Of a DNA stretch of 64,000 nt, positions 7,776 to 39,524 are shown piece after piece. Positions within the stretch are counted from its first letter, which is position 1. Each line of letters begins with the position of its first letter. The translations under genes were made by a program, and so were the position numbers. This stretch comes from Thermodesulfovibrionia bacterium (GTDB lineage: Bacteria > Nitrospirota > Thermodesulfovibrionia > UBA6902), in the NCBI GenBank assembly GCA_038918635.1, contig JBCKZY010000003.1:6073-70072 (forward strand), written 5' to 3'. A model generated the notes under the pieces. It did not search any database. It was not told the origin of the DNA and saw only the letters and a program-made list of their open reading frames with translations.

Positions 7776-9049
7776 AAAATATCTGAAAGATACATCTGTA
7801 AAGGGTCTTCTGTCTTCTCCCCTGCCCTGAATGCTGTTGTCGGTGTTGTAGGTGTAACTATAACGTCAACTTTCTCATACGCCTTCTGAAAATCCCGCTT
7901 TATCAGTGTTCTGACCTGTTGAGCCTTCCTGTAGTAAGCATCATAGTATCCTGACGACAGTGCGTAAGTCCCGAGGATTATTCTCCTCTTTACCTCAGCG
8001 CCAAAACCTTCAGCCCTTGTTCTCATATACATATCCAGCAGGTCTGTTCCTTTCGTTCTAAGCCCGTACCTCACCCCGTCATACCTTGCAAGATTAGCTG
8101 ATGCCTCAGAAGTAGCGAGCACATAATAGGTCGCAACCGCGTAACCCGTATGCGGCAGTGATATCTCTACAGGTATGGCGCCCAGTGATTCAAGCATCTT
8201 TATCGCCTCTTTTACAGATTCCTCCACCTCTCTCTCCATGCCTTCGATAAAATATTCCCTGGGGAAACCGACCTTCATCCCTTTTATATCCTGACCCAGA
8301 AGAGACGTGAAGTCCGGGACCTCCTTTGAGACAGATGTTGAATCAAGTTGGTCATGTCCGCAGATTACATTTAAAAGTATCGCGGAATCCTCCACGTTTT
8401 TAGTAATAGTTCCAATCTGATCAAGGGAAGAGGCAAAAGCAACAAGGCCATAGCGGGAAACCATACCGTATGTCGGTTTAAATCCCACCACTCCGCAAAA
8501 CGCCGCGGGCTGTCTGATGGAGCCGCCTGTGTCAGATCCCAGAGCGGCGATACACTCGTCCGCTGCAACAGCTGCGGCTGAACCCCCGCTTGAACCGCCT
8601 GGCACTCTACTTCTGTCCCACGGGTTTTTTGTATGTCCAAAGGCTGAGTTTTCTGTTGAGGATCCCATGGCAAATTCATCAAGGTTTGTTTTGCCTATAA
8701 GAATATATCCCTCATTCTTCAGCCTTTGAGTTGCCGTGCTTTCATATGGGGGGATAAAGTTTTCAAGCATTCTTGATGAACATGTTGTTCTGATCCCCTC
8801 GGTACAGATGTTATCTTTTACCGCTATAGGAATGCCGTTAAATGATCGCTTTACGCCATTTTTTATGCTCTTTTCCGCCTGCTTTGCCTGTTCAACCGCG
8901 TCATCCATGTTAACAGTAATATATGCGCCGACCTCCCCTTCAACAGCATCTATCCTTCCGAGCACAGCTTTTACAAGCTCTACAGGACTGACGTCACCTC
9001 TATCAATAGCTGAGCGGGCTTCCTTTATAGTCTGGCTGTAAATTTCCAA
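7763..9049 (-). CDS. gatA: Asp/Glu-tRNA amidotransferase subunit A (truncated by a frameshift; intact gene would span 7596-9049)
   Basis: Amidase signature [12 protein letters not shown] and colinear GatA sequence up to [10 protein letters not shown], followed by a premature stop after 4 foreign residues. Confidence 0.9.
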
Positions 9050-9164: not shown

Positions 9165-9743
9165 TCAGTCATCAACCTGTCTTCTGAACCTTAGAAATAA
9201 ATAAAATCCGATGAGAAAAGGTTCAAATCTTATAACCATATTATCTGTAAAACTCCAGAGAAACTGGGACAGAAAAATCCTTGACCTGCTGAAAGTTTCA
9301 ATGTGTACCTGCATAAATGACTCGGTCAGGACTTTATACTCAAGTGACATCACAAAAAGGTGATGTATACAAATCAGTAATAACAGGGCCTCACTGAATG
9401 CCCTCAATCTCCTTCTAATAAAAAAATACATGGAAGACATTATCCCTAATGTCAGGGGGACATTAAATGTATATTTTGATGTCCTGACATTAATATCGAC
9501 CAGCATATCAGGTCTTATGCTCAATGGAGAATAAAAAGTAGCCCGGACTACATCCTTCATCTTAACCATTTCGTCAATCCTGGCATCCTTGATAACCCCT
9601 ATAACCCTGGAAGATACGAAGGTTACGGCATAACCGTAGTAGTCTTTAACCTGTATCCATATCAATAATGCTACAAAGTAAGCGATAAGGAATACGAGGA
9701 CAGTTTTGATTATGGTCTGTCTGTCAGGAGTTTTTAACTTCAT
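9165..9743 (-). CDS. polytopic membrane protein, likely exosortase-associated partner
   Basis: About 4 predicted TM segments. The start MKLKTPDRQ at 9743 overlaps the exosortase stop by 20 nt, which suggests translational coupling. I recognise no catalytic motif. Confidence 0.5.
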   Translation of the reverse strand: MKLKTPDRQTIIKTVLVFLIAYFVALLIWIQVKDYYGYAVTFVSSRVIGVIKDARIDEMVKMKDVVRATFYSPLSIRPDMLVDINVRTSKYTFNVPLTLGIMSSMYFFIRRRLRAFSEALLLLICIHHLFVMSLEYKVLTESFMQVHIETFSRSRIFLSQFLWSFTDNMVIRFEPFLIGFYLFLRFRRQVDD

Positions 9744-20133: not shown

Positions 20134-22905
20134 ATGTTATTTTCCAGAAGACAGTTTCTTAAAATCACCGCGGCCGTCAGCGCTGCAACTGCCCTTGGAA
20201 TAAGCGTGCCTGATGAACTGATGGCTGTCGCAAAACAGACTCAGGCAGGATGGAGATGGGATAAATCGGTCTGCAGGTTCTGCGGTACCGGATGCGGCAT
20301 CATGATCGCTACAAAAAACGACATGATCGTCGCTGTCAAAGGAGATCCTCTGGCCCCTGTAAACATGGGCCTGAACTGTATTAAGGGGTATTTCAACGCA
20401 AAGATCATGTACGGTTCTGACAGATTATCGGAACCGCTGATGAGAGTAAACGGAAAAGGTGAGTTTGACAAGAAGGGTAAGTTTAAAGCCGTTACCTGGG
20501 AAAGGGCTTTTGATGAAATGACCGGGCAGTTCAAGAAATATTATGCCGAGCTTGGACCAAAGGGGATATCCATTTTCGGTTCCGGGCAATATACGATCAT
20601 GGAAGGGATTGCCGCTGTTAAACTGATTAAGGCCGGCTTCAGAAGTAATAACATTGATCCGAACGCCCGACACTGCATGGCAAGCGCGGTCGTAGGATTT
20701 ATTCAGACATTCGGCATTGACGAACCTGCCGGCAACTATGATGATATGCACCATGCGGACTCGATAGTCCTATGGGGCGCTAATATGGCTGAGATGCACC
20801 CTGTTCTCTGGTCAAAAATAACCGACAGAAAACTGAGTAAACCTGACCGGATAAAAATAGTGAATCTGTCCACTTTTAACAACAGGTGCTCGAATATCGC
20901 AGATCTTGAAATTATCTTCAAGCCAAATACTGACCTTGCAATCCTTAACTATATTGCCCGTGAAATCGTGTATAACCGTCCTGAAGCGATTGACTGGGAA
21001 TTCGTCAATAATAATTGTGTTTTTGCGACAGGTCCGGTAGATATCGGCTATGGAATGCGAGATGATATCAACCACGGTAAATTCAGTTCGAGTGAGTTGG
21101 ACACTGTAGCCATGCAGGCATCAAAAATTATTTCCCGGGATGAAGCACATGCAATGAGCTCTCTTGGGATCAAGGCAGGTTCAAGGATGCAGATGAAGAA
21201 CGCCAAGAAACCGGGTAAGCACTGGGCGATCAGTTTTGATGACTTCAAGAAAGGGCTTGAACCTTATACCCTGGATTTTGTGGCGAAACTGGCAAAAGGG
21301 GACCCGGATGAACCGCTGGATGAATTCAGGAAAAAACTGACAAAACTCGTTGATTATTACGCCGCAAAGGACAGAAAAGCCGTCAGTTTCTGGACAATGG
21401 GTTTTAACCAGCATGTACGCGGATCATGGGTAAATGAACAGATGTATATGGTCCACCTGCTTCTGGGGAAACAATCCCAACCCGGCAACGGCGCATTCAG
21501 CCTGACAGGACAGCCGAGCGCGTGCGGTACAGCACGAGAGGTCGGCACCTTCGCGCACCGGCTGCCTGCTGACATGGTGGTTGCAAATCCAGGGCACAGG
21601 AAGAAGTCTGAAAAGCTGTGGAAACTTCCCGAAGGCACACTGAATCCTGTCGTGGGATCGCATTACACAAAGATCATGAGAGACCTGGAGGACGGAAAGA
21701 TAAAGTGGACATGGGTACAGGTCAATAACCCCTGGCAGAATACAGCCAATATGAATCACTGGATCAAGGCAGCGAGGGAGATGGATAACTTCATTGTGGT
21801 CTCCGAAGCATACCCCGGCATCTCGGCAAAGGTAGCGGACCTGATACTGCCCAGTGCCATGATATTTGAAAAATGGGGCGCTTATGGCAATGCCGAACGA
21901 AGGACACAGCACTGGAAGCAGCAGGTTACCCCTATCGGTAAATCGATGTCAGATACATGGCAGATAGTGGAATTTGCAAAGAGGTTTACATTAGCCGAGG
22001 TCTGGAAAGCACATAAGATTAATGACAAAGTAACACTCCCTGATGTCCTTGCAAAGGCCAGGGAGATGGGATACAAAGAGACAGATACCCTGTATGACGT
22101 GCTTTATGCAAATAAGGAGGCCAAATCATATAAGTGGCCTGACCCTGTTGGTAAGGGGTTCTTCAACTCTGAAGCCGGTGGAGACAAGAGGGATGTCGAG
22201 GGTTTTAAAGGGTACGGCTTCTTCATTCAGAAATATCTCTGGGAGGAGTACCGGAGATTTGGTCAGGGCAATGGTCATGATCTGGCTGATTTTGATACCT
22301 ATCATAAGGTGAGGGGCCTTAAATGGCCTGTCATTAATGGCAAGGAGACAAGATGGAGATTCAATGCCGAGTATGACCCCTATGCAAAGGCAGCCAACCA
22401 TGGAAAATTCGCTTTTTATGGCAAGGCCTTAAAATCAATCCCAAAGGGAGACCTGTTCGGACCAAAAGGGGAAGAAAAGCTGAATCTCCCCAATAAAGCA
22501 AAAATATTTCTGAGGCATTATGCAGAACCCCCGGAGATGCCCGGAAGTGAGTATCCATTGTGGCTTTGTACCGGAAGGGTACTGGAACACTGGCACAGCG
22601 GGACGATGACGATGCGCGTTCCAGAACTCTACCGGGCAGTCCCTGAGGCTGTCTGTTTCATGAACCCCGGGGATGCAACAACCTATAATGTAAAGAACGG
22701 CCAGCTTATATGGATTGAATCAAGGCGAGGAAGGGTAAAGTCAAGAGTTGAGACAAGGGGAAGAAATAAGCCGCCGAGCGGCCTGATATTCGTTCCCTGG
22801 TTTGACGAACGGGTACTGATCAACAAGGTTACCCTTGACGCGACATGTCCTATGTCAAAGCAGACTGATTTTAAAAAGTGTGCCGTAAAGATATACAAGG
22901 CGTAA
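20134..22905 (+). CDS. napA: periplasmic nitrate reductase catalytic subunit NapA (long form)
   Basis: Tat signal [19 protein letters not shown], an N-terminal 4Fe-4S motif CRFCGTGCG...C, and molybdopterin oxidoreductase colinearity. It is 923 aa and is followed by napB. Confidence 0.9.
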
Positions 22906-22963
22906 AATTGATCTGAATATGACACGTTACAACTTTTCAATAAATAATGGGGGGTGATGTTTT

Positions 22964-23509
22964 ATGTCATTTTATGAAAAAAAATGTCTGATAGTAGTAC
23001 TGGCACTGATTTCCATATTCGCGATCTCATCTGTTTATGCTGAAACAGATGAGATATCAGAGGAGGAGCTTGGGATCAGAAAAGAGACGCTGTACGATGA
23101 AAATAAGACGACCCCGGTTTACGGGGAACCGCTTAAAGAAGAAGCCGGTGACAGCACCAGAATTGAGAGGGCGTTTGAAAACAGTCCTCCCCTTATCCCT
23201 CATGACATTACAGGGATGCTGCCTATCGCGCAGACAGATAATATATGTATGGGGTGCCATATGCCTGAGGAGTCAGCGAGTTCAGGCGCGACACCTATCC
23301 CAAGATCGCATTTATTTGATCTCTCAACAGGGAAAGACCTGAAGGGAAAGCTTGACGGCAACCGTTTTAATTGCCTGCAATGCCATGTCATCCAGACAAC
23401 TGTCAGCCCCGCTGTCGAGAACCTCTTTAAAGGCGAATTCAGGGATGAGGATGACCGTTACAGGTCAAACCTGATAGATATCCTGAACGAAGGAGTAGAG
23501 GAAGATTAA
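22964..23509 (+). CDS. napB: diheme cytochrome c NapB
   Basis: Sec signal, two CxxCH motifs (CMGCH, CLQCH) and the NapB-typical PPLIPH segment. Confidence 0.85.
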   Translation: MSFYEKKCLIVVLALISIFAISSVYAETDEISEEELGIRKETLYDENKTTPVYGEPLKEEAGDSTRIERAFENSPPLIPHDITGMLPIAQTDNICMGCHMPEESASSGATPIPRSHLFDLSTGKDLKGKLDGNRFNCLQCHVIQTTVSPAVENLFKGEFRDEDDRYRSNLIDILNEGVEED

Positions 23510-26958: not shown

Positions 26959-28293
26959 TTGCTGAATTTTACTGAGGTGAATGTGGATCGAACATCAGTT
27001 ACAGTAGGGATTATCGGATTTGGGACAGTCGGGACCGGTGTCGCTAAAATACTCCTTAAGAAGAGAGAGGAGCTTCGCAGGAGACTCGGGTTCAGGATTG
27101 TTCTTAAGAAAATTGCTGACCTCGACATAAAGAGGGACAGAGGAGTAAGGCTTCCAAAGGGATTACTGGTTAACGATGCCGGGGCTGTTTTAAATGACCC
27201 TGATATTGATATTGTTGTAGAACTGATCGGGGGAATAAGACCCGCAAAAGATTTTATGCTGAAGGCTATTAAGAACGGCAAGCATGTTGTTACTGCCAAC
27301 AAAGCGCTTCTGGCAACAGCCGGAAAGGGGATATTCTCAGCCGCGGAGAGAGCCGGAGTGGAGGTCGGTTTTGAGGCATCGGTTGCCGGAAGCATACCGA
27401 TAATCAAGGTCATAAGGGAATCGCTGATAAGTGACAGGGTACAGGCTTTATATGGAATAATTAACGGGACATCAAATTATATTCTAAGCAGGATGACTGA
27501 AGAGGGTGTGGATTTTTCATCCACTCTCATGGAAGCCAAGAAGCTTGGTTATGCTGAGGCGGACCCCACATTTGACATTGATGGTACCGATTCAGCGCAT
27601 AAGCTTGCCATACTTCTTTCACTCTCGTTTGGCGTGCCATTTTCATTCAGGAGTATATATACAGAGGGGATTACAGGGATAACCCCCCTTGATATACAGT
27701 TTGCTTCAGAGTTCGGTTATAAGATAAAGTTACTGGCTATCGCGAAACTCTCTGGCAGGAATATTGAGGCAAGAGTTCATCCTACAATGCTGCCGGATGA
27801 CAATCTGATGTCAAGTGTTAACGGTGTGTATAACGCTATAAATGTGGATTCAGATGACGCAGGCCGTGCTCTTTACTATGGCAGGGGCGCCGGTGAAATG
27901 CCCACCGGAAGCGCTGTGGTAAGTGATATTGCCGATATAGCAAGGAACGTAGTGGCAGGGGTTCCCGGAAGAATACGCGGACTTGGAATGCCCGAGAAGA
28001 GCGGTCTCGACATTATGTCCATGGAGGAAATTAATACCTGCTACTATCTCAGGTTTTCTGTTATTGATAAGCCCGGTGTACTCTCAAGTATATCCGGCAT
28101 CCTTGGGAAGTGTAATATAAGCATAAAATCTGTTATACAGAAAGAGAGGAAGAGAGAAAAGACAGTTCCTCTCGTTATGATGACGCACAGGGCAAAAGAG
28201 AAAGATATCATAAGGGCTCTGAAGGTGATTAACAGACTCTCTGCCGTCAGCGGCAAGACCGCGTTAATCAGGGTTGAGAGTAAGGGTGAATAA
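26959..28293 (+). CDS. hom: homoserine dehydrogenase
   Basis: NAD-binding GFGTVGTG, the homoserine dehydrogenase catalytic core and a C-terminal ACT domain. It has a TTG start, with an alternative GTG at 26977. Confidence 0.9.
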   Translation: MLNFTEVNVDRTSVTVGIIGFGTVGTGVAKILLKKREELRRRLGFRIVLKKIADLDIKRDRGVRLPKGLLVNDAGAVLNDPDIDIVVELIGGIRPAKDFMLKAIKNGKHVVTANKALLATAGKGIFSAAERAGVEVGFEASVAGSIPIIKVIRESLISDRVQALYGIINGTSNYILSRMTEEGVDFSSTLMEAKKLGYAEADPTFDIDGTDSAHKLAILLSLSFGVPFSFRSIYTEGITGITPLDIQFASEFGYKIKLLAIAKLSGRNIEARVHPTMLPDDNLMSSVNGVYNAINVDSDDAGRALYYGRGAGEMPTGSAVVSDIADIARNVVAGVPGRIRGLGMPEKSGLDIMSMEEINTCYYLRFSVIDKPGVLSSISGILGKCNISIKSVIQKERKREKTVPLVMMTHRAKEKDIIRALKVINRLSAVSGKTALIRVESKGE

Positions 28294-28542
28294 GTGAGCG
28301 ACTTTAAGGTGGATAAGAAGCTTGATATAAGGGGTGTGGTATGTCCCTATACCCTCGTGAAGTCGAAACTGGCTGTTGAAGATGTTGAGGTCGGACAGAT
28401 CGTTGAAATATTACTGGACTATCCCGAGGCTGTGACCAGTATCCCAAAGGCTATGGAAAATTACGGTAATAAAGTGCTTAATGTTGAGAAGATAAATTCC
28501 ACCGAATGGAAGATACTTGTAAGAAAAGAGGTTGAAGATTGA
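28294..28542 (+). CDS. TusA/SirA-family sulfurtransferase
   Basis: 82 aa with the conserved Cys in DIRGVVCPYTLVK. The GTG start follows directly after the hom stop. Confidence 0.8.
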   Translation: MSDFKVDKKLDIRGVVCPYTLVKSKLAVEDVEVGQIVEILLDYPEAVTSIPKAMENYGNKVLNVEKINSTEWKILVRKEVED

Positions 28543-29342
28543 TGGAATTTACCGAGGAACAGTTAAAGAGGTACAGCAGACATATTATACTTCCGGAGGT
28601 TGGTGGAAAGGGTCAGAGAAAAATATCCGGGGCAAAGGTGCTTATTGTCGGAGCCGGGGGGCTTGGCTGTCCTGTCGGCTACTTTCTGGCGGCGGCAGGG
28701 GTAGGGACTCTGGCGCTTGTTGACAATGACATTGTTGAACTCAGTAATCTGCAGAGACAGATAGCTCATAACACAAAGACAATCGGAATGAATAAAGCTG
28801 AATCCGCCAAAATAACATTTGAGACTTTAAATCCGGATGTTAACGTCGTCCCGGTTAAGGAGAGGATCAATAGCAGGAATATACTTGATATCTTCAATGG
28901 ATATGATATCATTGTTGACGGGACTGATAATTTCCCCACCAGGTACCTTATAAATGATGCCTGTGTAATGCTTAAAAAACCTCTTGTGAGCGGAGCCATC
29001 CTGAGGTTTGAAGGACAGGTCACAACTATAGTGCCGAATGATGGTCCCTGCTACAGGTGCCTGTTTGAAGAACCCCCGCCGCCGGGTCTCGTCCCATCAT
29101 GTCAGGAGGCAGGGGTGCTAGGGGTTCTACCGGGTATAATAGGGGGGCTGCAGGCAACCGAGGTGCTAAAGCTGATATTGGGGAAAGGGAAACCTCTCAA
29201 GGGTGAACTGCTCATCTATAACGCACTTGAAACAAACTTCAGGAAGGTAAAGATACCAAAAAATCCTGATTGTAATATGTGCGGGAAAAACCCGAAGATC
29301 ACGGAACTGAAGGAATATACAGAAGAGTACTGCGGTATTTAG
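28542..29342 (+). CDS. ThiF/MoeB/HesA-family adenylyltransferase (E1-like)
   Basis: The nucleotide loop GAGGLGCP and the motif VDNDIVELSNLQRQ. Two CxxC pairs are present (CYRC, CNMC), and there is no rhodanese domain. The ATG overlaps the tusA-like TGA (TGATG). Confidence 0.85.
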   Translation: MEFTEEQLKRYSRHIILPEVGGKGQRKISGAKVLIVGAGGLGCPVGYFLAAAGVGTLALVDNDIVELSNLQRQIAHNTKTIGMNKAESAKITFETLNPDVNVVPVKERINSRNILDIFNGYDIIVDGTDNFPTRYLINDACVMLKKPLVSGAILRFEGQVTTIVPNDGPCYRCLFEEPPPPGLVPSCQEAGVLGVLPGIIGGLQATEVLKLILGKGKPLKGELLIYNALETNFRKVKIPKNPDCNMCGKNPKITELKEYTEEYCGI

Positions 29343-29471
29343 CCACAGATTTACGCAGATATAAAAAGTGATAATTTAATAATAGAGAATTAACAAAGAC
29401 TTAATTTCTAACATATTTCTTGTGGTGAATTGGTAAATTGTTGTTATTGAATCAGTGGAAATCCGTGGCTA
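29340..29471. repeat. TAGCCAC...GTGGCTA hairpin element
   Basis: TAGCCACAGATTTACGCAGAT ... GAATCAGTGGAAATCCGTGGCTAA. Its first three bases are the stop codon of the thiF/moeB-like gene. Confidence 0.7.
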
Positions 29472-29493
29472 AAAAAGGTAATAGGAGGATAAG

Positions 29494-30729
29494 GTGTCGT
29501 TTGTAAAAGGACTTAAATGCAGGGAATGCGGCAGGGAATATGATATAGCCCCTGTTTACGTGTGCGAGTTCTGTTTCGGGCCTCTTGAGGTTGTATATGA
29601 TTACGATGGTATAGGAAAATCGCTGACAAGAGAAATTATAGCTTCAAGGCCTGAAAACCTCTGGCGTTACAGGGAACTGCTGCCTGTTGATGGGGAACCG
29701 TCATGCGCGCTGAATGCCGGATTTACTCCTCTGGTAAAAGCAGATAACCTGGCCAGACATCTTGGAATTAAGTCTTTATATATTAAGGATGATACAGTAG
29801 TGCATCCATCTCTCTCTTTCAAGGACAGGGTTGTTGCTGTAGCGTTAACAAAGGCCAGGGAATTCGGCTTTGATACAGTCGCCTGTGCTTCTACAGGCAA
29901 TCTTGCGCATTCGGTCTCTGCAAATGGCGCGGCGGCAGGCTTTAAACGTTTTATTTTTATTCCCGCTTCTCTTGAACAGAGCAAGATAACAGCCTCTCTT
30001 GTATATGAACCTAATCTGATTGCCGTAGATGGCAACTACGATGAAGTTAACAGGCTCTGCAGTGAGGTCGCGAACAAGTACCGCTGGGCATTTGTAAATA
30101 TAAATATCAGGCCGTTCTACGCGGAAGGATCAAAGACTCAGGGGTTTGAGATCGCGGAGCAGCTTGGCTGGCGTCTCCCTGATGCTATTGTAGTACCCTG
30201 TGCAAGCGGTTCATTACTTACAAAGGTCTGGAAGAGTTTCAAGGAGCTGAATCAGATTGGGTTGATCGACGGATTGAAAACGAGGGTCTTTGCGGCGCAG
30301 GCAACCGGCTGTTCACCGATTGTTACCGCTATTAAACAGGGAATAGATGTTATAAAGCCCGTAAAGCCTGATACTATAGCTAAATCACTTGCTATTGGTA
30401 ATCCAGCCGACGGTTATTACGCGACTAAAGTAATAACTGAGAGCGGCGGGTTTGGTGAGGATGCTTCGGATGCCGAGATTATTGAAGGGATAAGGCTTCT
30501 CGCAAGGACTGAGGGGATTTTTGCCGAGACCGCTGGAGGAGTTACACTGGCATCGGCAATTAAGCTTATAGAGAGCGGTCACATTGACAGGGAAGGAACT
30601 ACTGTACTGTGTATAACGGGTAACGGGCTGAAGACACAGGAAGCTCTCAGCGGACATACGGTAAGTCCGCATTACATTAAGCCTAATATGGATTCATTTG
30701 AGGAAGTTTTGAAAAAAATAAATCATTAG
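29494..30729 (+). CDS. threonine-synthase-fold PLP enzyme with N-terminal zinc ribbon (ThrC paralog; candidate sulfur-carrier-dependent homocysteine/cysteine synthase)
   Basis: Zinc ribbon CRECGREY...CEFC. The PLP lysine context is SLSFKDRVVAV. It is 411 aa with a GTG start and an AGGAGG RBS, and a canonical thrC lies 1.2 kb downstream. Confidence 0.8.
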   Translation: MSFVKGLKCRECGREYDIAPVYVCEFCFGPLEVVYDYDGIGKSLTREIIASRPENLWRYRELLPVDGEPSCALNAGFTPLVKADNLARHLGIKSLYIKDDTVVHPSLSFKDRVVAVALTKAREFGFDTVACASTGNLAHSVSANGAAAGFKRFIFIPASLEQSKITASLVYEPNLIAVDGNYDEVNRLCSEVANKYRWAFVNINIRPFYAEGSKTQGFEIAEQLGWRLPDAIVVPCASGSLLTKVWKSFKELNQIGLIDGLKTRVFAAQATGCSPIVTAIKQGIDVIKPVKPDTIAKSLAIGNPADGYYATKVITESGGFGEDASDAEIIEGIRLLARTEGIFAETAGGVTLASAIKLIESGHIDREGTTVLCITGNGLKTQEALSGHTVSPHYIKPNMDSFEEVLKKINH

Positions 30730-31132
30730 CCACTGACTCACACAGACCTGAAAATATATGAATAAGATGACATAAAAACAAAGATTGACAATCTCGTAAA
30801 AAGTCTTGTTTCCCCTCCCCTGTCGGAGCGACCCTTCGCGGAGACCCGCTTCGGGGTGGGAGGGGATTAAGGGGAGGGGATTAAGGGGAGGGGATTAAGG
30901 GGAGGGGGATATAAGTATTTGAAATAAAACCTTTTTCACCCTCACCCCAACCCTCTCCCCGACAAAAGACTCGGGACAGGCCCGTCAAGGGAGAGGGGGT
31001 TGTTGGACTTTTTACGAGTTTATCAAAGATTAATTTTTATCATAATTTTGTTTTAGATTGGTAAATGTCTGTTATTTAGTCAGTGCAAATCTGTGGCTAA
31101 TTTGTTATTGAATCAGTGAAAATCTGTGGCAG
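30727..31132. repeat. TAGCCAC...GTGGCTA hairpin element split by a nested family-A MITE
   Basis: The left arm TAGCCACTGACTCACACAGACCTG begins with the stop codon of the ThrC paralog. The right arms are CAGTGCAAATCTGTGGCTAA and GAATCAGTGAAAATCTGTGGCAG. The TIR-bounded element 30790-31024 sits inside. Confidence 0.65.
30790..31024. mobile_element. MITE-like element, family A copy 2 (with internal tandem expansion)
   Basis: It has the same ends and core as 904-1088, plus three tandem GATTAAGGGGAGGG units and an extra CCGACAAAAGACTCGGGACAGG module. Confidence 0.75.
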
Positions 31133-31160
31133 AAAAACAGTTTTTAAGGAGGATAACCAT

Positions 31161-31433
31161 ATGTCTGTTAAGGTAAAAGTCCCTGTACCTCTTCAGCGCT
31201 TAACTGAGGGCAAAGAAGAAGTGGAGGGTGAAAAAGGCACAATCATAGCGCTTATCGAAGAGCTTGATCAGAAATATCCCGGTCTTGCAGAGAGGATATC
31301 AGAGGGTGGCAAGCTGAGAAGGTTTGTTAACGTTTATGTGAATGAGGAAGATGTGAGGTTTCTTAATAATGAAGCCACATCCGTTGATGACGGAGATGTG
31401 GTCTCTATTGTACCTGCGATTGCAGGAGGTTAA
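31161..31433 (+). CDS. CysO/MoaD/ThiS-family ubiquitin-like sulfur carrier protein ending in Gly-Gly
   Basis: 90 aa. The segment KLRRFVNVYVNEEDVRF...DGDVVSIVPAIAGG-stop follows the pattern I recall for mycobacterial CysO. The likely start is MSVKVKV at 31161, preceded by an AGGAGG RBS. Confidence 0.85.
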   Translation: MSVKVKVPVPLQRLTEGKEEVEGEKGTIIALIEELDQKYPGLAERISEGGKLRRFVNVYVNEEDVRFLNNEATSVDDGDVVSIVPAIAGG

Positions 31434-31482
31434 CGGGTTGATTTTACTTATTCTTAAAAAAAATCTTATAGATGCAAGATCA

Positions 31483-31631
31483 TACACTCGTAAAAAAATC
31501 ATGGGATGGCTAAGTAAAAATTTCGATATACAAGGCGTAGTGTATTATTAAAGCCGAGACTATACATATAGTATGTCGAGGATTTCAAAATGCGCTACAA
31601 CGCAGTAGATCGGACTTTTTACGACGCCATC
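31483..31631. mobile_element. MITE-like element, family B copy 3
   Basis: Near-identical to the other two copies. It is inserted between the sulfur-carrier gene and the NIL-domain gene. Confidence 0.8.
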
Positions 31632-31665
31632 AAAGATTATTAATCAGTATTTCCGGGGGGCAGTA

Positions 31666-31902
31666 ATGAAGAAAAGGGTGAAGCTTACTTTTCCACAGAA
31701 CTTGATCAAGGAGCCGGTTATCTTCAACATGGCCAAAAACTTTGATATCATGCCAAATATTAGAAGGGCCCGTGTGACCGAGACAGTCGGGGAGATGATT
31801 CTTGAGCTTGAGGGTTCTGAAGATAACCTCAATAATGGGGTGGACTTTCTCAAAGAGCAGGGAGTAGTTGTAGAATCTGCTGAAGGCGACATTGTAGAGT
31901 AA
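31666..31902 (+). CDS. stand-alone NIL domain protein
   Basis: 78 aa. The segment [33 protein letters not shown]...GEMILELEG follows the NIL (MetN C-terminal-type) pattern. The stop lies 1 nt before the thrC start. Confidence 0.75.
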
Positions 31903-31903
31903 T

Positions 31904-32971
31904 ATGGATATGTGGCCCGGACTGATCGAGAAATACAGGGACTTACTTCCTGTAACAGATAGAACCCCTATTATTACCCTTTTTGAAGGTAATACCCCTT
32001 TACTGAAGGCAGTTAATACAGACGATCTGTTTCCAGTGGGCTTTGATCTTTACTTCAAATATGATGGCGCTAACCCAACCGGTTCATTTAAAGACAGGGG
32101 GATGACTCTTGCCATCTCAAAGGCGATGGAGTCCGGGTCGGAAGCTGTGATATGTGCTTCAACCGGGAACACCTCAGCGTCCGCGTCTGCCTATGCCGCG
32201 AAAGCCGGCATCTCTACGATCGTTCTGATCCCTGAAGGGAAGATTGCAATGGGCAAGCTAGCTCAGGCGATGATCCATGGGGCCATGGTACTGCAGTTAG
32301 ACGGTAATTTCGATGAAGCGTTAAGAATTGTTAAAGAGATTGTGGAGAAACATCCTATAGAGCTGGTTAATTCATTAAACCCTTTCAGGATAGAGGGGCA
32401 GAAGACAGCAGCTTTTGAGATCTGTGATCAGCTTGGAGATGCCCCTACTTACCATGTTCTTCCGGTTGGAAATGCCGGTAACATAACAGCTTACTGGAAG
32501 GGTTATAAGGAATATCATAATACCGGCAGGACCGCTAAGCTTCCGGTGATGCTTGGTTTTCAGGCATCTGGATCAGCTCCTATCGTTAAAGGACATCCTG
32601 TTGAAAATCCTGAAACAGTAGCAACGGCTATAAGAATAGGAAACCCTGCAAGCTGGCAGGGCGCGGTCAAAGCAAGAGATGAGTCCGGAGGTTTAATAGA
32701 ATCCGTTACTGACGAAGAGATCCTTGACGCGTATAAATTCCTCGCGACAAAGCAGGGGATATTCTGTGAACCTGCATCAGCTGCTTCTCTTGCCGGGGTG
32801 ATAAAACTATCTAAGAATAATTATTTCAAAGACGGAGAGACTGTTGTATGCACCCTGACCGGAAACGGTTTAAAAGACCCTGATAATGCGATTAAGATAT
32901 CGGAGCCGCCGATTAAGGTCAAGGCGAACCTGACGGATGTTGAGGATGTTTTGCGAGGCTGCTGTATATAA
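31904..32971 (+). CDS. thrC: threonine synthase
   Basis: 355 aa of the short bacterial type, with the PLP lysine in [12 protein letters not shown]. Confidence 0.9.
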
Positions 32972-33065
32972 TAGTTTAAATCCCCGCCTTATTCCGCTCG
33001 GAAGTGCAACACTATCTGATTAATCAAGAGAATTCCTCGATGCTCTGCATTGGGGTTAATCCAAT

Positions 33066-33215
33066 TTCCCTCCCCCTTGACGGGCCTGTCCCGAGTCTTT
33101 TATCGGGGGGAGGGTTAGGGTGGGGGTGTTTTATAAATTATTTCATCCCCTTCCCCTTAATCCCCTCCCGTCCCGAAGCGGGTCTCCGCAAAGGGTCGCT
33201 CCGACAAGGGAGGGG
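33066..33215. repeat. family-A MITE core, inverted orientation, lacking recognisable TIRs
   Basis: It matches the reverse complement of the 904-1088 core (CCCTTGACGGG ... CCCCTTAATCCCCTCCC ... CCGAAGCGGGTCTCCGC ... GGTCGCTCCGACA). Confidence 0.65.
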
Positions 33216-33300
33216 AGATACCTCGTCCCGATTCATCGGGACTGCGAGGTAGTTCATTTGAAATTATCCAAATACTTATCATTTTGCTATAATTCGAGAT

Positions 33301-33687
33301 ATGGCGGGGATGAAGGTTAACCTGACAGTTATAGAGGGGCCTGAAAAGGGCAAATCATTTACCTTTGATGAACCTGAGAATTTTCTACTCGGTAGAAGCG
33401 CGCAGGCAAGCAAAGCGCATCTTTGTCTGAGTCCTGATGATACCTATGTCTCCCGGAATCATTTTCTCCTGGAGATAAATCCGCCTGATTGTTTTATCCG
33501 AGATGCCGGAAGCCTTAACGGAACGTTTATTGTGAGGCACTCTGATAAAACAGTCTTTTATATATCCGGTCGCAGTGATGACAAAGAATACTATGGCTTG
33601 ATTGACTTTTCTGTTAATCCCAATACCCCCCTGAAAGCAAAACATATTTTGTCATTCTCGCAAGCTAAGTGTCAGGAATCCTTTTAA
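33301..33687 (+). CDS. FHA-domain protein, probably a truncated remnant
   Basis: An FHA core is present (FLLGRS, SRNHFLLEI, DAGSLNGTFI). The expected C-terminal FHA strands are absent, and the last 12 codons are read from a GTCATTC...GGAATGAC repeat element (33651-33736). Confidence 0.6.
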   Translation: MAGMKVNLTVIEGPEKGKSFTFDEPENFLLGRSAQASKAHLCLSPDDTYVSRNHFLLEINPPDCFIRDAGSLNGTFIVRHSDKTVFYISGRSDDKEYYGLIDFSVNPNTPLKAKHILSFSQAKCQESF

Positions 33688-33882
33688 AGAACGATTCCCC
33701 CGAAACAACGGGGCAGGCTGGACAAGCCGGAATGACGGACAGTTACCACTCGTAACTGAAGGGTTACCCTTCCAGTTATTTTGCGGTTGAAATTCATCCA
33801 CTGAATGTTTAATAATATGGTATGATTTATCTGAATACTGAATATCAGAATTCAGAAAAAGGGACAAATAAGGAGGTTTGGA

Positions 33883-34170
33883 ATGGATACCATGAAAACT
33901 GCCATTGCAGAGATAAAGACTCGCGGCCAGTTGACCATCCCCAAGAAAATAAGAGAATCAAGTCATCTTGAAGAAGGACAGGTAGTCTCTATCATACCTG
34001 TGGGAGACTCTGTCATCATCACCCCGAAAAGGCTTGAGCTCGATGAGGCGCGAAGGCAGATCAGAAAGATAATGAAATCATCGGGGCTTTCAGCAAAAGA
34101 ACTGCTCAAAGGGATTGGAGAGGAGAGAGATCTGCTTTACAGGGAAATCTATGGCAAGAAAAAGCGTTAA
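33883..34170 (+). CDS. AbrB/MazE/SpoVT-family antitoxin
   Basis: SpoVT-AbrB swapped-hairpin motif TRGQLTIPKKIRESSHLEEGQVVSIIPVGDSVIITP. It overlaps the downstream PIN gene. Confidence 0.8.
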   Translation: MDTMKTAIAEIKTRGQLTIPKKIRESSHLEEGQVVSIIPVGDSVIITPKRLELDEARRQIRKIMKSSGLSAKELLKGIGEERDLLYREIYGKKKR

Positions 34171-34612
34171 GATCTTCCTTGATTCGAACGTCATCATATC
34201 GGGTCTTTTCTCTGATAAAGGGGCGCCCCGCATCATTCTCGACCTTTTATCGCTCGGACTTCCTCAGCTTACCGGGGCAACAGGGGAATATAATATCATT
34301 GAAATTGAGCGGAACCTGACAAAAAAGATGCCTGAGGCGCTTCCGGCTTATAGTAAATATCTTCCATTGCTGAACCTTGACATCCTACCTCTTCCCTCGT
34401 CAAGAGATATCGCTAAACTAAGCGGGACCACTTCCCAAAAAGATATCCCTGTCCTTGCTTCAGCCATCAATGGAAATGTTGATTTTCTCGTAACAGGGGA
34501 CAAAAAAGACTTTATCAATTTAAGAGGAAAATATTCATTTAAAATCCTGAGCCCTTCGGAATTCCTTGATATCATTCTTCCTGAGATACTCAAGGCTTTG
34601 GAGTCTGATTGA
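34151..34612 (+). CDS. PIN-domain toxin (PIN_3/TIGR00305-like)
   Basis: N-terminal acidic site IFLDSNVIISG and a C-terminal FLVTGDKKDF. The start MARKSV at 34151 overlaps the antitoxin gene by 20 nt. Confidence 0.75.
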   Translation: MARKSVKIFLDSNVIISGLFSDKGAPRIILDLLSLGLPQLTGATGEYNIIEIERNLTKKMPEALPAYSKYLPLLNLDILPLPSSRDIAKLSGTTSQKDIPVLASAINGNVDFLVTGDKKDFINLRGKYSFKILSPSEFLDIILPEILKALESD

Positions 34613-34724
34613 TGAAAAATCTTTCAATTGCCGCTGAAGTCGTCCGATGGATAGCAACTTCTAAAGCGGTTGATATAGAATATAATAGCGTCACGAAGAT
34701 ATTTGTTTGAGCGAGGGATATCTT

Positions 34725-35231
34725 TCCCCGATAAAACGGGACAGGCCGGCTTGTCCGGTCTCCTCAGGCGACTCGCCGAGGCGAGAATCTTGTTACATGA
34801 TGACTCCCGATAAACGGGAGTGACAATTGTTATGTAATATAGTAGAAAGAAATCCAGCCTTTCTTACTCAGCTAAAATGTCATATAGCCCTTCACTTTTG
34901 CTCATCATAAAAGTTAATATATCATTCATTTTAAAGTATTATTGCATTGAAAAATAATATGTACCCGAGCAAGCTATGGGGTATCAAATATGGTCATTCC
35001 CCGATTCATCCTTCGCAGTGCTACGGAGAATGGATAAACCCCCGAATAATCGGGACAGTCGGGACAGGCCCGAGGTTTGTTGATCGGGCCTGTCCCGACT
35101 TATTCGGGGAATCCAGATAATTATATTCTCTGGTTCCCCGCCGGAGTTTATCCCGTACTACGATACGGGGCGGGGACGACGTCTGGATACCCGCTGAAGT
35201 TTATCCCGAACTTTCGGGGCGGGTATGACGA
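34725..35231. repeat. cluster of short palindromic repeat modules (CCCGATAAAACGGGACAGGCC type; family-C modules)
   Basis: 34725-34824 and 34993-35231 contain the modules GTCATTCCCCGAT, CGGGACAGGCCCG and GGATACCCGC(C/T)G(G/A)AGTTTATCCCGAACTTTCGGGGCGGGTATGACGA, shared with 19360-19581. Confidence 0.65.
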
Positions 35232-35285: not shown

Positions 35286-36497
35286 ATGAAATACATAGTA
35301 CTGGTAGGCGATGGAATGGCGGACAGGCCTCTTAAGAAATTGGGCTATAAGACCTGCCTTCAAAAAGCCAAAACTCCTTATATGGACTGGCTTGCGTCAG
35401 AAGGAGAACCGGGAAAGGTCAGGACTATCCCAAAAGGGCTTGAACCCGGATCAGATGTTGCTAACCTCTCTATCCTTGGATATGATCCGTCGAGGTATTA
35501 TAGCGGAAGGGCCCCATTCGAGGCAGCCTTTCAGGGGATAAATCTTGACCCTGAAGACGTTGCTTTCAGGTGCAATCTTGTCACCCTGGAGTTTAAGAGA
35601 GCTAAAACGATAATGCGGGATTACAGTTCGGGACATATTACGACCGGGGAATCAAAGAAGCTGATACAGGAGATAGAGAGGAAACTGGGAAGCGGCAAGA
35701 TAACTTTCTTCCCCGGTGTAAGTTATCGCCATTTGATGATCTGGAAGAACGGGAAAGAGAAGATACACTGTACGCCTCCGCACGATATTTCCGGCAGGAA
35801 TATCAGTAAATATCTTCCAACGGGGAAGGGCGCTGATGTACTTTTGAACCTTATGACCGGGTCGGTAAAAATCCTTACGTCTCATCCCGTGAACTATAAA
35901 AGAGTAAAAAAAGGCTCTCCCCCCGCAAACAGTCTCTGGTTCTGGGGGCATGGCAGAAAATTGTCTATTCCAAAGTTCAAGGATAAATATAATCTTGAGG
36001 GCGCACTGATATCAGCTGTTGATCTGACAAAGGGTCTCGGTATCTGCGCGGGTTTTGATGTCTTGAACGTGAAAGGCGCGACCGGATATATTGATACTAA
36101 CTATATCGGCAAAGCCAGAGCGGCTTTGAGGGCTCTAAAAAAATATGACATAGTATATGTCCATGTTGAAGCTCCTGATGAGGCAGGTCATAGTGGAGAT
36201 ATCACAAATAAAATAAAGGCGATAGAGGACTTTGACTTAAAGGTTGTCGGGACTGTGCTTAAGGGCATGAAGAGATTTGAAGAGTATAGTATTTTGTTGC
36301 TGCCTGACCACGCAACTCCAATAAGCAAGATGACTCATACTGATGAACCTGTTCCATATGTAATTTACAGAAATACAGCGTCCTCAATAAAAAGAAACAG
36401 TAAAGCTAATGCGTTCACAGAATATATTTGCAGGATGAAGAATATCCCTGTTTTTGAAAAGGGGTATGAATTGATGGACTATTTTATAAGAAAATAG
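35286..36497 (+). CDS. cofactor-independent phosphoglycerate mutase homolog (archaeal apgM type); candidate non-orthologous homoserine kinase
   Basis: Alkaline-phosphatase-superfamily motifs: N-terminal VLVGDGMADRP and C-terminal VHVEAPDEAGHSGD and LLPDHATP. The start MKYIVL is at 35286. It lies between thrC and aspartate kinase. Confidence 0.7.
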   Translation: MKYIVLVGDGMADRPLKKLGYKTCLQKAKTPYMDWLASEGEPGKVRTIPKGLEPGSDVANLSILGYDPSRYYSGRAPFEAAFQGINLDPEDVAFRCNLVTLEFKRAKTIMRDYSSGHITTGESKKLIQEIERKLGSGKITFFPGVSYRHLMIWKNGKEKIHCTPPHDISGRNISKYLPTGKGADVLLNLMTGSVKILTSHPVNYKRVKKGSPPANSLWFWGHGRKLSIPKFKDKYNLEGALISAVDLTKGLGICAGFDVLNVKGATGYIDTNYIGKARAALRALKKYDIVYVHVEAPDEAGHSGDITNKIKAIEDFDLKVVGTVLKGMKRFEEYSILLLPDHATPISKMTHTDEPVPYVIYRNTASSIKRNSKANAFTEYICRMKNIPVFEKGYELMDYFIRK

Positions 36498-36731: not shown

Positions 36732-37958
36732 ATGGCTCTAATTGTTCAAAAATACGGAGGCACCTCGGTTGCTGATATCGTCAGGATCAGGGAGGTTGCC
36801 AAAAGGGTTGTCAGGACCGTCAAAAAGGGTAACAGGGTTGTAGTCGTTGTTTCAGCCATGGCTGGGGAGACCGATGAGATGATCAGGTTGTCCTCTGAGG
36901 TGACTGATATGCCGGATGAAAGAGAGATGGATCTTCTGCTTTCGTCCGGAGAGCGGAAGACAAGCGCCCTTACCGCCATGGCTATTCAGAAGCTGGGGAT
37001 TGATTCCATGAGTCTTACAGGCAGGCAGGTAGGGATTATAACCGACAGTTCGCATACCAGGGCTATTATAGAACGAGTAGATGCCAGAAGGCTCAAGAGG
37101 GTTCTGAAAGATAATAAGGTGCCTGTTGTAGCGGGTTTTCAGGGAATCAATGAATTCTCTGATGTTACAACACTTGGAAGGGGAGGTTCGGATACAACGG
37201 CTGTTGCAATAGCAGCAGCGCTGAATGCCGACCTCTGTGAGATTTATACGGATGTCGATGGGGTTTACACCACTGACCCCAGGATCTGTAAAGAAGCCCG
37301 CATGATGCAAAGGATCTCTCATGATGAGATGCTGGAGATGGCTAGTCTTGGCGCAAAGGTGCTTCATAGCCGGGCTGTTGAATTTGCCAAGAAATATAAT
37401 GTAAATCTTGTTGTTCGATCCAGTTTCAATAATACTCCCGGGACGCTTGTTGCAAAGGAGGATGAAGATATGGAGAAATTTGTTGTATCGGGTGTTACAT
37501 CTGACAGGAATCAGACGAGGATTACAATTATGGGTGTGCCGGATAAACCGGGGATAGCGGCCAAGCTCTTTAATTCAATCGCTGATGCTAATATACTGGT
37601 TGATGTGATCGTGCAGAATATAAGCACCGAGACAAAGGCAACAGATATATCGTTTACCGTTCCAGTGTCTGACAATAAAAAGGCACTGAGGATTACAAGG
37701 AAGATATCCGATACACTGGGGGCAAAAGGTGTCAATATGAATACAGATGTTGCAAAGGTCTCAATTGTTGGTGTCGGTATGCGCTCTCATTTTGGTGTTG
37801 CCGCCAAAATGTTCGAGATACTGTCTGAAAAGAAAGTAAATATAATGATGATCAGCACATCTGAGATAAAGATATCATGTATCGTGGATGAAAAGTATAT
37901 GGTAAGGGCGGTAAAGGCGCTTCATAATGCCTTTATACCACTAAAAAAGGTAAAATAA
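36732..37958 (+). CDS. lysC: aspartate kinase (monofunctional, two ACT domains)
   Basis: N-terminal VQKYGGTSV and the kinase core [11 protein letters not shown], with tandem ACT domains in a 408-aa protein. Confidence 0.9.
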
Positions 37959-37961
37959 CCG

Positions 37962-39524
37962 ATGCGAAAGATTGAGATTTATGATACGACCTTAAGGGAC
38001 GGCGCTCAATCAGAGGAGATCTCGTTCTCTATTGAAGATAAGCTCAGGATTGTTGAGAAACTCGATGAACTTGGAATCCACTATATAGAGGGAGGCTGGC
38101 CGGGATCAAGTCCAAGAGATGTTGAGTTCTTCAACAGGGCACGCAAACTAAGGCTGAAGAAATCAACTCTTGTTGCATTCGGGTCAACCAGAAAGGCTGC
38201 AAACAAGGCTCACAGGGACCCAAACCTGCTGGCTTTACTCAAGGCTGACACCCCGGTTATCACTATCTTCGGTAAGACATGGGACTTCCATGTCAGGACA
38301 GCTTTAAGAATTTCACTGTCAGGGAATCTTGATGTTATCCAAAGTTCCGTGGCTTATCTGAAGAAGAGGGTCTCCAGAGTATTTTTTGATGCTGAGCACT
38401 TCTTTGACGGATACAGGGCTAACCCGGACTATGCTATTCAATCACTCCAGGCAGCTGTATCTGGCGGTGCCGACTTTATTGTTCTCTGCGATACAAACGG
38501 AGGGACTCTTCCATATGAGCTTGAGAAGATTGTTAAGGATGTTATTTCAAGGTTCGATGTCCCTGTCAGTATACATGCTCATAATGATTCTGAGTGTGCT
38601 GTCGCCAATTCATTAATTGCAGTCAGGGCAGGCGCCTCGCAGGTGCAGGGGACAATAAACGGTTTAGGTGAAAGATGCGGTAATACCAACCTTGTATCTA
38701 TCATCCCTAATTTAAAGCTAAAACTTAAGTATAATGTTATAACTAACCGTAATTTAAAGAAATTGAAGGATGTGTCAAGATTTGTTACCGAGATCGCGAA
38801 TATAAGACATTCAAAGAATCAACCTTTTGTGGGAGACAGCGCATTCGCTCATAAAGGCGGGATACATGTCAGTGCTGTTATGAGACATTCGAAAACATAT
38901 GAGCATATCAGCCCTGAGCTTGTAGGCAATTATCAGAGGATTCTGGTATCAGATCTCAGCGGAAGAAGTAATATTATGAGCAAGGCCAGGGAGTTTAACC
39001 TTAAAATTGATCCTGCCTCTCCAGAGGTGTCGAATATTATTCATGAGTTGAAAGAGCTTGAGAACCAGGGCTTTCAGTTTGAAGGAGCTGAAGCTTCTTT
39101 TGAGCTTCTAATGAAAAAGACCTTTCAGCTTCACAGGAAGTTTTTCGAGCTTATCGGCTTCAGGGTCATAGTGGAGAAGAGAAAAGAGGGGGAACTCCCT
39201 ATAAGTGAGGCCACAATAATGTTGAGGGTAAAAGGAAAACTTGAGCACACAGCGGCCACTGGTGAGGGGCCTGTTAATGCTATTGATAATGCCCTGAGAA
39301 AGGCGCTTGAGAAGTTTTATCCCCAGTTACGTGATGTCAGGCTCATTGACTATAAGGTCAGGGTTCTTGCAGCTGGCAAAGGGACTGCCGCAAAGGTCAG
39401 GGTACTTGTTGAATCGGGTGATGGTATACATAAATGGGGCACCGTTGGGGTTTCGGAAAATATAATAGAGGCCTCCTGGCAGGCCATTGTTGACAGCATT
39501 GAATACAAACTCCTGCGGGGGTAA
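37962..39524 (+). CDS. cimA: (R)-citramalate synthase (LeuA-related, CimA type)
   Basis: [48 protein letters not shown] is the citramalate-synthase-type N-terminus. The protein is 520 aa with a LeuA dimerisation/regulatory domain. Confidence 0.8.

Follow-up and report, generated by a model that had tools for sequence, protein, structure and literature searches.

Hasebe et al. (2024) reportedly described the MetM/MetO pathway of Streptomyces albulus, which starts from O-phosphohomoserine, and Krishnamoorthy and Begley (2011) are said to have described the HcyS/HcyF/HcyD/MetY system of Wolinella succinogenes, which uses O-acetylhomoserine, the fold-type I enzyme MetY and the JAMM protease HcyD. 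In the CysO/CysM/Mec/MoeZ system of Mycobacterium tuberculosis, a thiocarboxylate carrier attacks a pyridoxal 5'-phosphate (PLP)-bound intermediate formed from a phosphorylated hydroxy amino acid. The S. albulus gene metM encodes a threonine-synthase homologue and is preceded by an S-adenosylmethionine (SAM) riboswitch, with MetO as the sulfur carrier (PMC12172450). The GapMind 2026 steps for this route are MetO, Mec, MoeZ and MetM, the last being homologous to ThrC and often wrongly annotated as threonine synthase (10.1101/2024.10.14.618325). Here we analysed a 64,000-nucleotide stretch of contig JBCKZY010000003.1 from a Thermodesulfovibrionia bacterium of the Nitrospirota (the window), in which a block of seven open reading frames (ORFs), all on the plus strand at 26959–32971, encodes homoserine dehydrogenase (Hom), a TusA-family protein, a ThiF/MoeB-type E1-like enzyme, a PLP enzyme of the ThrC fold, a sulfur-carrier protein, a NIL-domain protein and threonine synthase (thrC). 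Judged from its sequence, the segment 28294–31902 is probably a MetM/MetO-type homocysteine module set inside an aspartate-family operon that runs from hom to thrC, HomK and aspartate kinase.

The seven ORFs, their families and their coupled junctions had been proposed in an earlier sequence-only reading of the window, and all were found where that reading had placed them (Table 1). The GTG start of TusA follows immediately upon the TAA stop of hom (gaaTAAGTGagc), the TusA stop and the ThiF ATG overlap as TGATG, and the thrC ATG lies one base past the NIL stop. The longest ThiF ORF reaches back to a TTG at 28539. Because the family alignment of Hom begins at residue 12, its true start probably lies a few codons inside the annotated ORF. 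The order hom–TusA–ThiF–enzyme–carrier–NIL–thrC is repeated in the related loci L001 and L084–L087, whose enzymes are 83–99% identical to that of the window, and this recurrence argues that the arrangement did not arise by chance.

To compare the active site of the PLP enzyme with that of threonine synthase, 84 members of its clade were aligned with six canonical ThrC proteins (those of the window, of loci L001–L004 and of Bacillus subtilis, 6CGQ). The clade retains the PLP lysine, K110, in an SFKDR motif and most cofactor-binding motifs, in common with all of the ThrC proteins compared. At nine positions, however, residues that are invariant across the six ThrC proteins are swapped throughout the clade: T88, S89, S155, N157, R160, Q164, R241, S247 and W248 of the B. 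subtilis protein correspond to L137, A138, N204, R206, Y209, S213, A300, D306 and G307 of the window enzyme. The combination LANRYS, made up of window residues 137, 138, 204, 206, 209 and 213, is shared by 77 of 83 homologues and persists among representative proteins, including actinobacterial ones, to an identity as low as ~41%. The neighbouring thrC product, which is 37% identical to the enzyme, has the B. subtilis residues at the signature sites compared and, as had been supposed, is the canonical threonine synthase of the pair. ThrC retains the phosphate to direct water addition, and we take T88, S155 and R160 to be residues that touch the substrate phosphate in Thermus ThrC structures. 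A phosphate site remodelled at these positions would fit an enzyme that admits a protein C-terminus at Cγ. Other ThrC-like subfamilies that are 35–41% identical to the enzyme (P0163–P0270), many of them with a zinc ribbon, have neither the ThrC nor the MetM-like signature, an example being A-A-T-N-T-K at the six signature positions.

Placement with hidden Markov models (HMMs) likewise set the enzyme apart from other PLP enzymes that had been considered. It scored far under the cutoffs for cysteate synthase (TIGR03844, 58 versus 325 bits) and for the CysK and cysteine synthase A models (37–40 bits only, with cutoffs of ~350–390), and, on the threonine-synthase side, just under that of PRK08197 (294 versus 303 bits). 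The ThrC signature residues are replaced in a protein that nevertheless passes the curated threonine-synthase model TIGR00260, a point to which we return below.

We then examined the neighbourhood of the enzyme gene in other genomes. The set comprised 80 loci from a scan of one genome per species (enzyme 56–77% identical), together with L001, L082 and L083, giving 83 fetched loci, or 84 with the window. Neighbours were counted by searching all ORFs of each locus with the window proteins; single-linkage clustering was set aside, as it merged small ORFs. The enzymes of the fetched loci are 56–83% identical to that of the window and come from more than 12 phyla, the 80 scanned loci covering Nitrospirota, Verrucomicrobiota, Planctomycetota, Chloroflexota, Acidobacteriota, Cyanobacteria, Actinomycetota, Nitrospinota, Desulfobacterota-like groups, Aquificaceae and others. 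A carrier homologue adjoins the enzyme gene in 72 of the 84 loci, and carrier adjacency is therefore a property of the enzyme family and not of this operon. Other neighbours are less frequent: ThiF is found near the enzyme gene in 22 loci, a CysK/CysM-type gene in 18, a JAMM/desampylase-like hydrolase in 15–16 (depending on the scan window), TusA beside ThiF in 7 (the window and six others) and canonical thrC in 5, all of them Nitrospirota and the window among them. In the Nitrospira-type loci L035, L040, L045, L052 and L059, genes for CysK-like, ThiF, MetM-like, carrier, NIL, second ThiF and JAMM proteins stand together; with an E1 paralogue on either side of the module and a cysteine synthase in the cluster, these loci may use one carrier system for both cysteine and homocysteine synthesis.

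A link to methionine metabolism was provided by riboswitches. Of the 14 loci searched first with Rfam, 6 have a SAM-I riboswitch (RF00162) immediately ahead of the enzyme gene, and a covariance model that we built from these six positives extended the count to 34 of the 83 fetched loci, at 10–250 nt from the start codon and always on the same strand. When ten of the new matches were rechecked with Rfam, all ten passed at the same coordinates, bringing the Rfam-confirmed total to 16. In Nonomuraea gerenzanensis (L083), the riboswitch (7816–7957) is followed by the enzyme gene (start at 7971; product 56% identical to the window enzyme) and by a carrier gene (9207–9503) whose product ends in AVAGG, and a metagenome-assembled genome of the Micromonosporaceae (L082) supplied a second actinomycete locus with a riboswitch. 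Nonomuraea came up in a tblastn search of plasmids because its chromosome is filed as one. The matches listed in a first homologue search with the window enzyme were all at least 79% identical and, where named, apparently from Nitrospirota, and a homologue search seeded with the Nonomuraea protein returned Streptosporangiales only. The riboswitch–enzyme–carrier order of Nonomuraea matches the arrangement given for S. albulus (PMC12172450). In Microcystis, a homologue shares 51.6% identity with MetM and the protein encoded beside it 47% with MetO (PMC12172450), and the window enzyme shares 58–59% identity with cyanobacterial homologues. The proposal that the ThrC paralog carries out thiocarboxylate-dependent homocysteine synthesis, made originally from the sequence alone, thus gains support from the carrier adjacency, from the riboswitches and from the published S. 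albulus arrangement.

Several observations weigh against this assignment. The enzyme still clears TIGR00260 (276 bits versus a cutoff of 167). No SAM riboswitch or other Rfam element was detected near the module in the window, either at the gathering threshold or at E ≤ 10, the only matches in the window being microRNA-type noise on repeat hairpins, and scans of Nitrospirota and cyanobacterial loci likewise gave no SAM riboswitch. Membership of the MetM/MetO family is reached through a transitive chain via the Nonomuraea and cyanobacterial homologues. The Microcystis homologue is reported to convert O-phosphohomoserine weakly to threonine and to act as a threonine deaminase in vitro, and to leave methionine unraised in vivo (PMC12172450); these data show that such enzymes can process O-phosphohomoserine without a carrier. 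The 64 kb contain no JAMM motif or Mec/JAMM homologue, so that no enzyme in the window accounts for freeing homocysteine from a possible adduct with the carrier, and a Mec/JAMM gene may be located elsewhere in the genome. A NapA-like periplasmic nitrate reductase (923 aa, with a twin-arginine translocation signal) and NapB are encoded 4 kb upstream of the block; this genome must therefore provide for making molybdenum cofactor, and ThiF, which scores within the MoeB subfamily, could also be the MoeB of this genome and might activate MoaD as well. Finally, the genome may hold other homocysteine routes beyond the window.

Part of this evidence, together with the name 'threonine synthase' that databases returned for the whole enzyme family, would also suit a different explanation, in which the 411-residue protein is just another threonine synthase, with or without deaminase activity, and the TusA, ThiF and carrier proteins serve molybdenum cofactor synthesis or tRNA thiolation, having come to lie in the operon by chance. 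However, the operon already includes a canonical thrC, 1.2 kb downstream of the enzyme gene, and an enzyme–carrier adjacency that is kept across phyla would be hard to obtain by chance. The riboswitches upstream of 34 orthologues are not a threonine-related form of control, the positions that are invariant in ThrC are swapped throughout the clade, and the carrier resembles CysO rather than MoaD, as described next. We regard this explanation as improbable and favour a MetM/MetO-type module.

The best match of the carrier in the PDB is M. tuberculosis CysO (3DWG chain C), with 47% identity over the full length (E = 3e-20), in agreement with the CysO-like pattern noticed earlier; a ThiS/MoaD family protein (4N6E chain B) ranks second, and the Nonomuraea carrier is 51% identical. 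The suspicion that the protein might instead be a MoaD was not borne out, as it lies below the MoaD cutoffs (TIGR01682, 19.6 versus 66 bits; TIGR01687, 47.6 versus 49.5 bits) and a scan of neighbouring genes turned up no MoaE. It is also under the ThiS cutoff. Carriers of the related loci mostly terminate in AIAGG or AVAGG followed by the stop codon; at least 48 of 72 end exactly at GG, and some others have 1–3 extra residues. Because its sequence ends at GG, the window carrier is mature as translated and C-terminal trimming is unneeded. The ThiF domain spans residues 12–246 of 267, with CxxC pairs of the usual Zn-binding type near the C-terminus, and a Pfam scan detected no rhodanese domain. 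From the coupling of the two genes, TusA may reasonably be taken as the sulfur source that replaces the rhodanese domain of MoeZ.

The similarity of the carrier to CysO raises the question of whether the module makes cysteine from O-phosphoserine, in the manner of CysO/CysM, or another thiol product. A CysK/CysM-type gene in 18 related loci and a JAMM gene in 15–16 indicate that the carrier may serve cysteine synthesis there. In the window, by contrast, no enzyme of the CysK/CysM fold is encoded and the partner of the carrier is of the ThrC fold, while the module is placed between hom and thrC/HomK, that is, among makers and users of O-phosphohomoserine. Moreover, the SAM riboswitches point to methionine metabolism, and the loci with CysK/CysM have a MetM-like gene as well, not one instead of the other. 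A cysteine-forming or other thiol-forming module in the window is accordingly a poor prospect in our judgement, and homocysteine is the product that we prefer.

Taken together, these features suggest the following route. Homoserine would be supplied by aspartate kinase, the product of an asd gene located elsewhere and Hom, and would be phosphorylated to O-phosphohomoserine by HomK, the apgM-like kinase candidate of the sequence-only reading, which is assigned here by its HMM score (Table 1). The HomK-family members BT2402 and DET_RS08350 complement Escherichia coli thrB (10.1101/2024.10.14.618325). ThiF, by its family, is expected to adenylate the C-terminal Gly-Gly of the carrier, and a TusA persulfide, with sulfur coming from a cysteine desulfurase or from sulfide, could then turn the activated carrier into a thiocarboxylate, a step suggested by gene coupling only. 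The PLP enzyme would eliminate phosphate from O-phosphohomoserine and add the carrier thiocarboxylate at Cγ, after which homocysteine would be released, possibly via a carrier–homocysteine adduct; these steps fit the orthology, the conserved gene order and the SAM-riboswitch control seen in relatives. Canonical ThrC would compete for O-phosphohomoserine to make threonine. The NIL protein, a conserved partner of the enzyme–carrier pair, most likely binds methionine as the C2 domain of MetN does and could exert feedback at the branch point, which is the weakest step of the scheme.

The module core corresponds to the already published MetM/MetO pathway of 2024 and is not categorically new. As in S. 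albulus, a gene for a ThrC-homologous PLP enzyme lies beside one for a CysO-like GG carrier, the genomic context here implies O-phosphohomoserine as substrate, and orthologues in actinomycetes and many other phyla have the SAM riboswitch reported for metM. The window differs from S. albulus in having a rhodanese-less E1 and a coupled TusA instead of MoeZ, a carrier that ends at GG with no Mec/JAMM gene in the window, an extra NIL protein, no SAM riboswitch, and a supercluster of hom, thrC, HomK and aspartate kinase in which the module is embedded. What sets the locus apart from the published route is TusA with a rhodanese-less E1, the carrier that is mature as translated, the missing riboswitch, the supercluster and, above all, the NIL partner, which is conserved and at times fused. 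An earlier description of the arrangement as unusual holds for TusA and NIL, which differ from the published route, but not for the zinc ribbon of the enzyme (C9, C12, C24 and C27), which is the family norm, with C9, C12 and C24 kept in at least 99% of the clade. The M. tuberculosis system shares the carrier type and the attack of a thiocarboxylate on a PLP-bound intermediate; there, however, the acceptor enzyme has the CysK/CysM fold and performs a β-replacement on O-phosphoserine, whereas the acceptor here is of the ThrC fold and would perform a γ-replacement on O-phosphohomoserine, with no Mec gene nearby and TusA standing in for the rhodanese domain. With the Wolinella system the locus has in common an E1-like activator and homocysteine synthesis dependent on a protein thiocarboxylate, but neither a MetY enzyme nor an HcyD protease is encoded in the window.

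We next considered the NIL protein. At the domain level, NIL stands beside the enzyme–carrier pair in 44 of the 84 loci; by best-hit counts it is present in 10/10 Nitrospirota and 12/17 Verrucomicrobiota loci, in several of the Chloroflexota and Planctomycetota, and in 0/16 cyanobacterial loci. Since NIL and thrC occur together in Nitrospirota only, NIL goes with the enzyme–carrier pair, not thrC. The carrier and NIL are joined in eight loci into a single ORF of the form ...IPAIAGG-linker-NIL (Table 1). A JAMM/desampylase-like protein is encoded in 7 of the 7 untruncated fusion loci, compared with 9 of 76 other loci, which implies cleavage after GG, as for other ubiquitin-like carrier precursors. 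NIL and a SAM riboswitch are found together in 16 loci, so that the two are not simple alternatives. In a locus of the Nitrospinaceae (L023), a 164-residue protein consisting of two tandem NIL domains is encoded downstream of the genes for the MetM-like enzyme, the carrier and ThiF, at a distance of ~3 kb.

The AlphaFold (AF2) model of the window NIL protein (pLDDT 88) has a β-α-β-β-α-β topology, and its best structural match is the C2 domain of MetN from E. coli, as seen in MetNI crystals soaked with selenomethionine (3TUZ; TM score 0.84, r.m.s.d. 1.0 Å). The predicted fold is almost superimposable on MetN C2 (3DHW, 3TUZ); the protein here is free-standing with 78 residues, or elsewhere a C-terminal extension of the carrier, and not part of a transporter. 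The invariant residue N31 is aligned with N295 of E. coli MetN, presumably the residue needed for methionine trans-inhibition. The protein contains no cysteine, which rules out a role as persulfide carrier. In the literature, the NIL domain is reported to bind methionine and regulate activity (PMC12068725) and has been linked to homocysteine formation (PMC12068725; PMC5764234). A methionine-responsive partner of the pathway is the most economical reading.

NIL had earlier been connected with homocysteine formation in methanogens, and it could accordingly mark the L-aspartate semialdehyde sulfurtransferase route of Methanosarcina (MA1821/MA1822) and Desulfovibrio, which uses DUF39 and NIL-ferredoxin proteins, in which case the ThrC paralog would be unrelated to sulfur incorporation. 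The ferredoxin subunit of that sulfurtransferase does contain a NIL domain, and one close NIL homologue bears its name in JGI. Yet no DUF39/COG1900, ferredoxin domain or COG2122 was found among the window ORFs scanned with Pfam, the NIL protein is free of cysteine, and NIL follows the enzyme–carrier pair, to whose carrier it is fused in eight loci. That route also skips homoserine, whereas this locus is centred on hom and HomK. The methanogen connection is thus not upheld, and we consider this route very improbable here.

Returning to the MetM/MetO module, we advance tentatively, as a possibility that we rate somewhat below even, that NIL is a genuine third MetM/MetO component in most lineages other than cyanobacteria and Streptomyces. 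As a MetN-C2-like methionine sensor, it could bind to the carrier, the E1 or the enzyme itself and so slow the formation of homocysteine where the pathways from O-phosphohomoserine part; in some lineages it is encoded as a carrier-GG-NIL precursor that a co-encoded JAMM peptidase would have to cut, much like a ubiquitin precursor. Such protein-level feedback could act beside the riboswitch or replace it. No mention of NIL together with MetM/MetO was found in the searchable literature, a scope outside which the original 2024 paper falls.

The two spacers flanking the MetM-like gene contain repeats (Table 1). An 18-nt motif, TCAGTGnAAATCyGTGGC, is present in four copies in the 64 kb compared with 0.14 expected, and all of the copies lie in these spacers; a 53-nt direct repeat precedes the enzyme and carrier genes alike. 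The inverted arms of each spacer extend from the upstream stop codon to ~20 nt ahead of the ribosome-binding site. The gap between the enzyme and carrier genes is 430 bp here, versus 45–240 bp in relatives, and is a strain-specific repeat insertion. A similar G-rich hairpin follows thrC, and both this hairpin and the one nested in the insertion drew spurious microRNA matches in Rfam. Relatives have analogous GCCAC.../...GTGGC arms in variable copy number. The idea that the repeats are a new regulatory RNA replacing the riboswitch was rejected, given that relatives with 96–99% protein identity already differ in copy number and inner sequence, that the elements are missing in L001 and L002, and that the alignment fold is almost without covariation energy. 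We treat them as lineage-specific palindromic repeats, which may have a role in mRNA processing or stability or be similar to repetitive extragenic palindromic (REP) elements or miniature inverted-repeat transposable elements (MITEs).

Downstream of the block, L084 and L085 have HomK, aspartate kinase and a citramalate-synthase-like gene directly after thrC. In the window, ~2.2 kb separate thrC from HomK, compared with ~190 bp in L085 and ~670 bp in L084; this stretch holds an ORF with an FHA domain and a MazE/PIN toxin–antitoxin pair and has the look of an insertion peculiar to this strain, by which the operon is split. A citramalate/isopropylmalate-synthase-like gene directly follows aspartate kinase in the window, as in L084 and L085, and for this reason the supercluster may also include a threonine-independent isoleucine route.

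Table 1 Positions of the genes and elements discussed, in window coordinates unless a related locus is named.
Feature	Position	Strand	Evidence or remark
NapA-like periplasmic nitrate reductase and NapB	20134–23509		
hom, homoserine dehydrogenase with C-terminal ACT domain	26959–28293	+	PF00742 Homoserine_dh, PF03447 NAD_binding_3, PF01842 ACT; PRK06349 537 bits
TusA-family sulfurtransferase, 82 aa	28294–28542	+	Pfam TusA 71 bits; conserved Cys in VVCPYT
ThiF/MoeB-type E1-like adenylyltransferase, 266–267 aa	28542–29342	+	PF00899 293 bits; PRK05690 MoeB subfamily 314 bits (cutoff 266)
Spacer between ThiF and enzyme genes	29338–29473	+	Inverted arms 29338–29367 and 29444–29473; hairpin −30.3 kcal/mol, z = −2.05
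MetM-like ThrC-fold PLP enzyme, 411 aa	29494–30729	+	PALP domain, PLP lysine K110, N-terminal 4-Cys ribbon
Spacer between enzyme and carrier genes	30717–31130		Copies of the 18-nt motif
Nested repeat insertion, hairpin-forming	30774–31037		Arms 30774–30805 and 31006–31037; GGGGAGGGGATTAAG in tandem at 30858–30907
MetO/CysO-type sulfur-carrier protein, 90 aa, β-grasp (ThiS/MoaD fold)	31161–31433	+	PF02597; terminus AIAGG-stop
Stand-alone NIL-domain protein, 78 aa	31666–31902	+	Pfam NIL 68 bits
thrC, canonical threonine synthase, 355 aa	31904–32971	+	TIGR00260 320 bits
Interval between thrC and HomK	33000–35230		
G-rich hairpin after thrC	33098–33181		
FHA-domain ORF	33301–33687		
MazE/PIN toxin–antitoxin pair	33883–34612		
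HomK (apgM-like homoserine phosphotransferase)	35286–36497	+	TIGR02535 526 bits (cutoff 446); longest ORF from 35232
Aspartate kinase with ACT domains	36732–37958	+	PRK06635 596 bits
Citramalate/isopropylmalate-synthase-like gene	37962–39524		HMGL-like and LeuA_dimer
Carrier–NIL fusion, L005	3032–3472		
Carrier–NIL fusion, L007	6331–6903		
Carrier–NIL fusion, L008	8158–8787		
Carrier–NIL fusion, L009	8279–8800		
Carrier–NIL fusion, L019	8276–8788		
Carrier–NIL fusion, L020	6324–6848		
Carrier–NIL fusion, L022	3008–3532		
Carrier–NIL fusion, L050	3206–3853		
Tandem NIL protein, L023	11424–12029		

One operon thus holds the supply of O-phosphohomoserine, through hom and HomK, and both of its probable fates, threonine and homocysteine. 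The signature L137/A138/N204/R206/Y209 is a simple residue test that separates the MetM-like family from ThrC, and annotation of its members as homocysteine synthases would close apparent methionine gaps in Nitrospirota, Verrucomicrobiota, Planctomycetota, Chloroflexota, Acidobacteriota and Cyanobacteria. The association of NIL with the carrier, at times within a single polypeptide, points to an accessory or regulatory component of the pathway.

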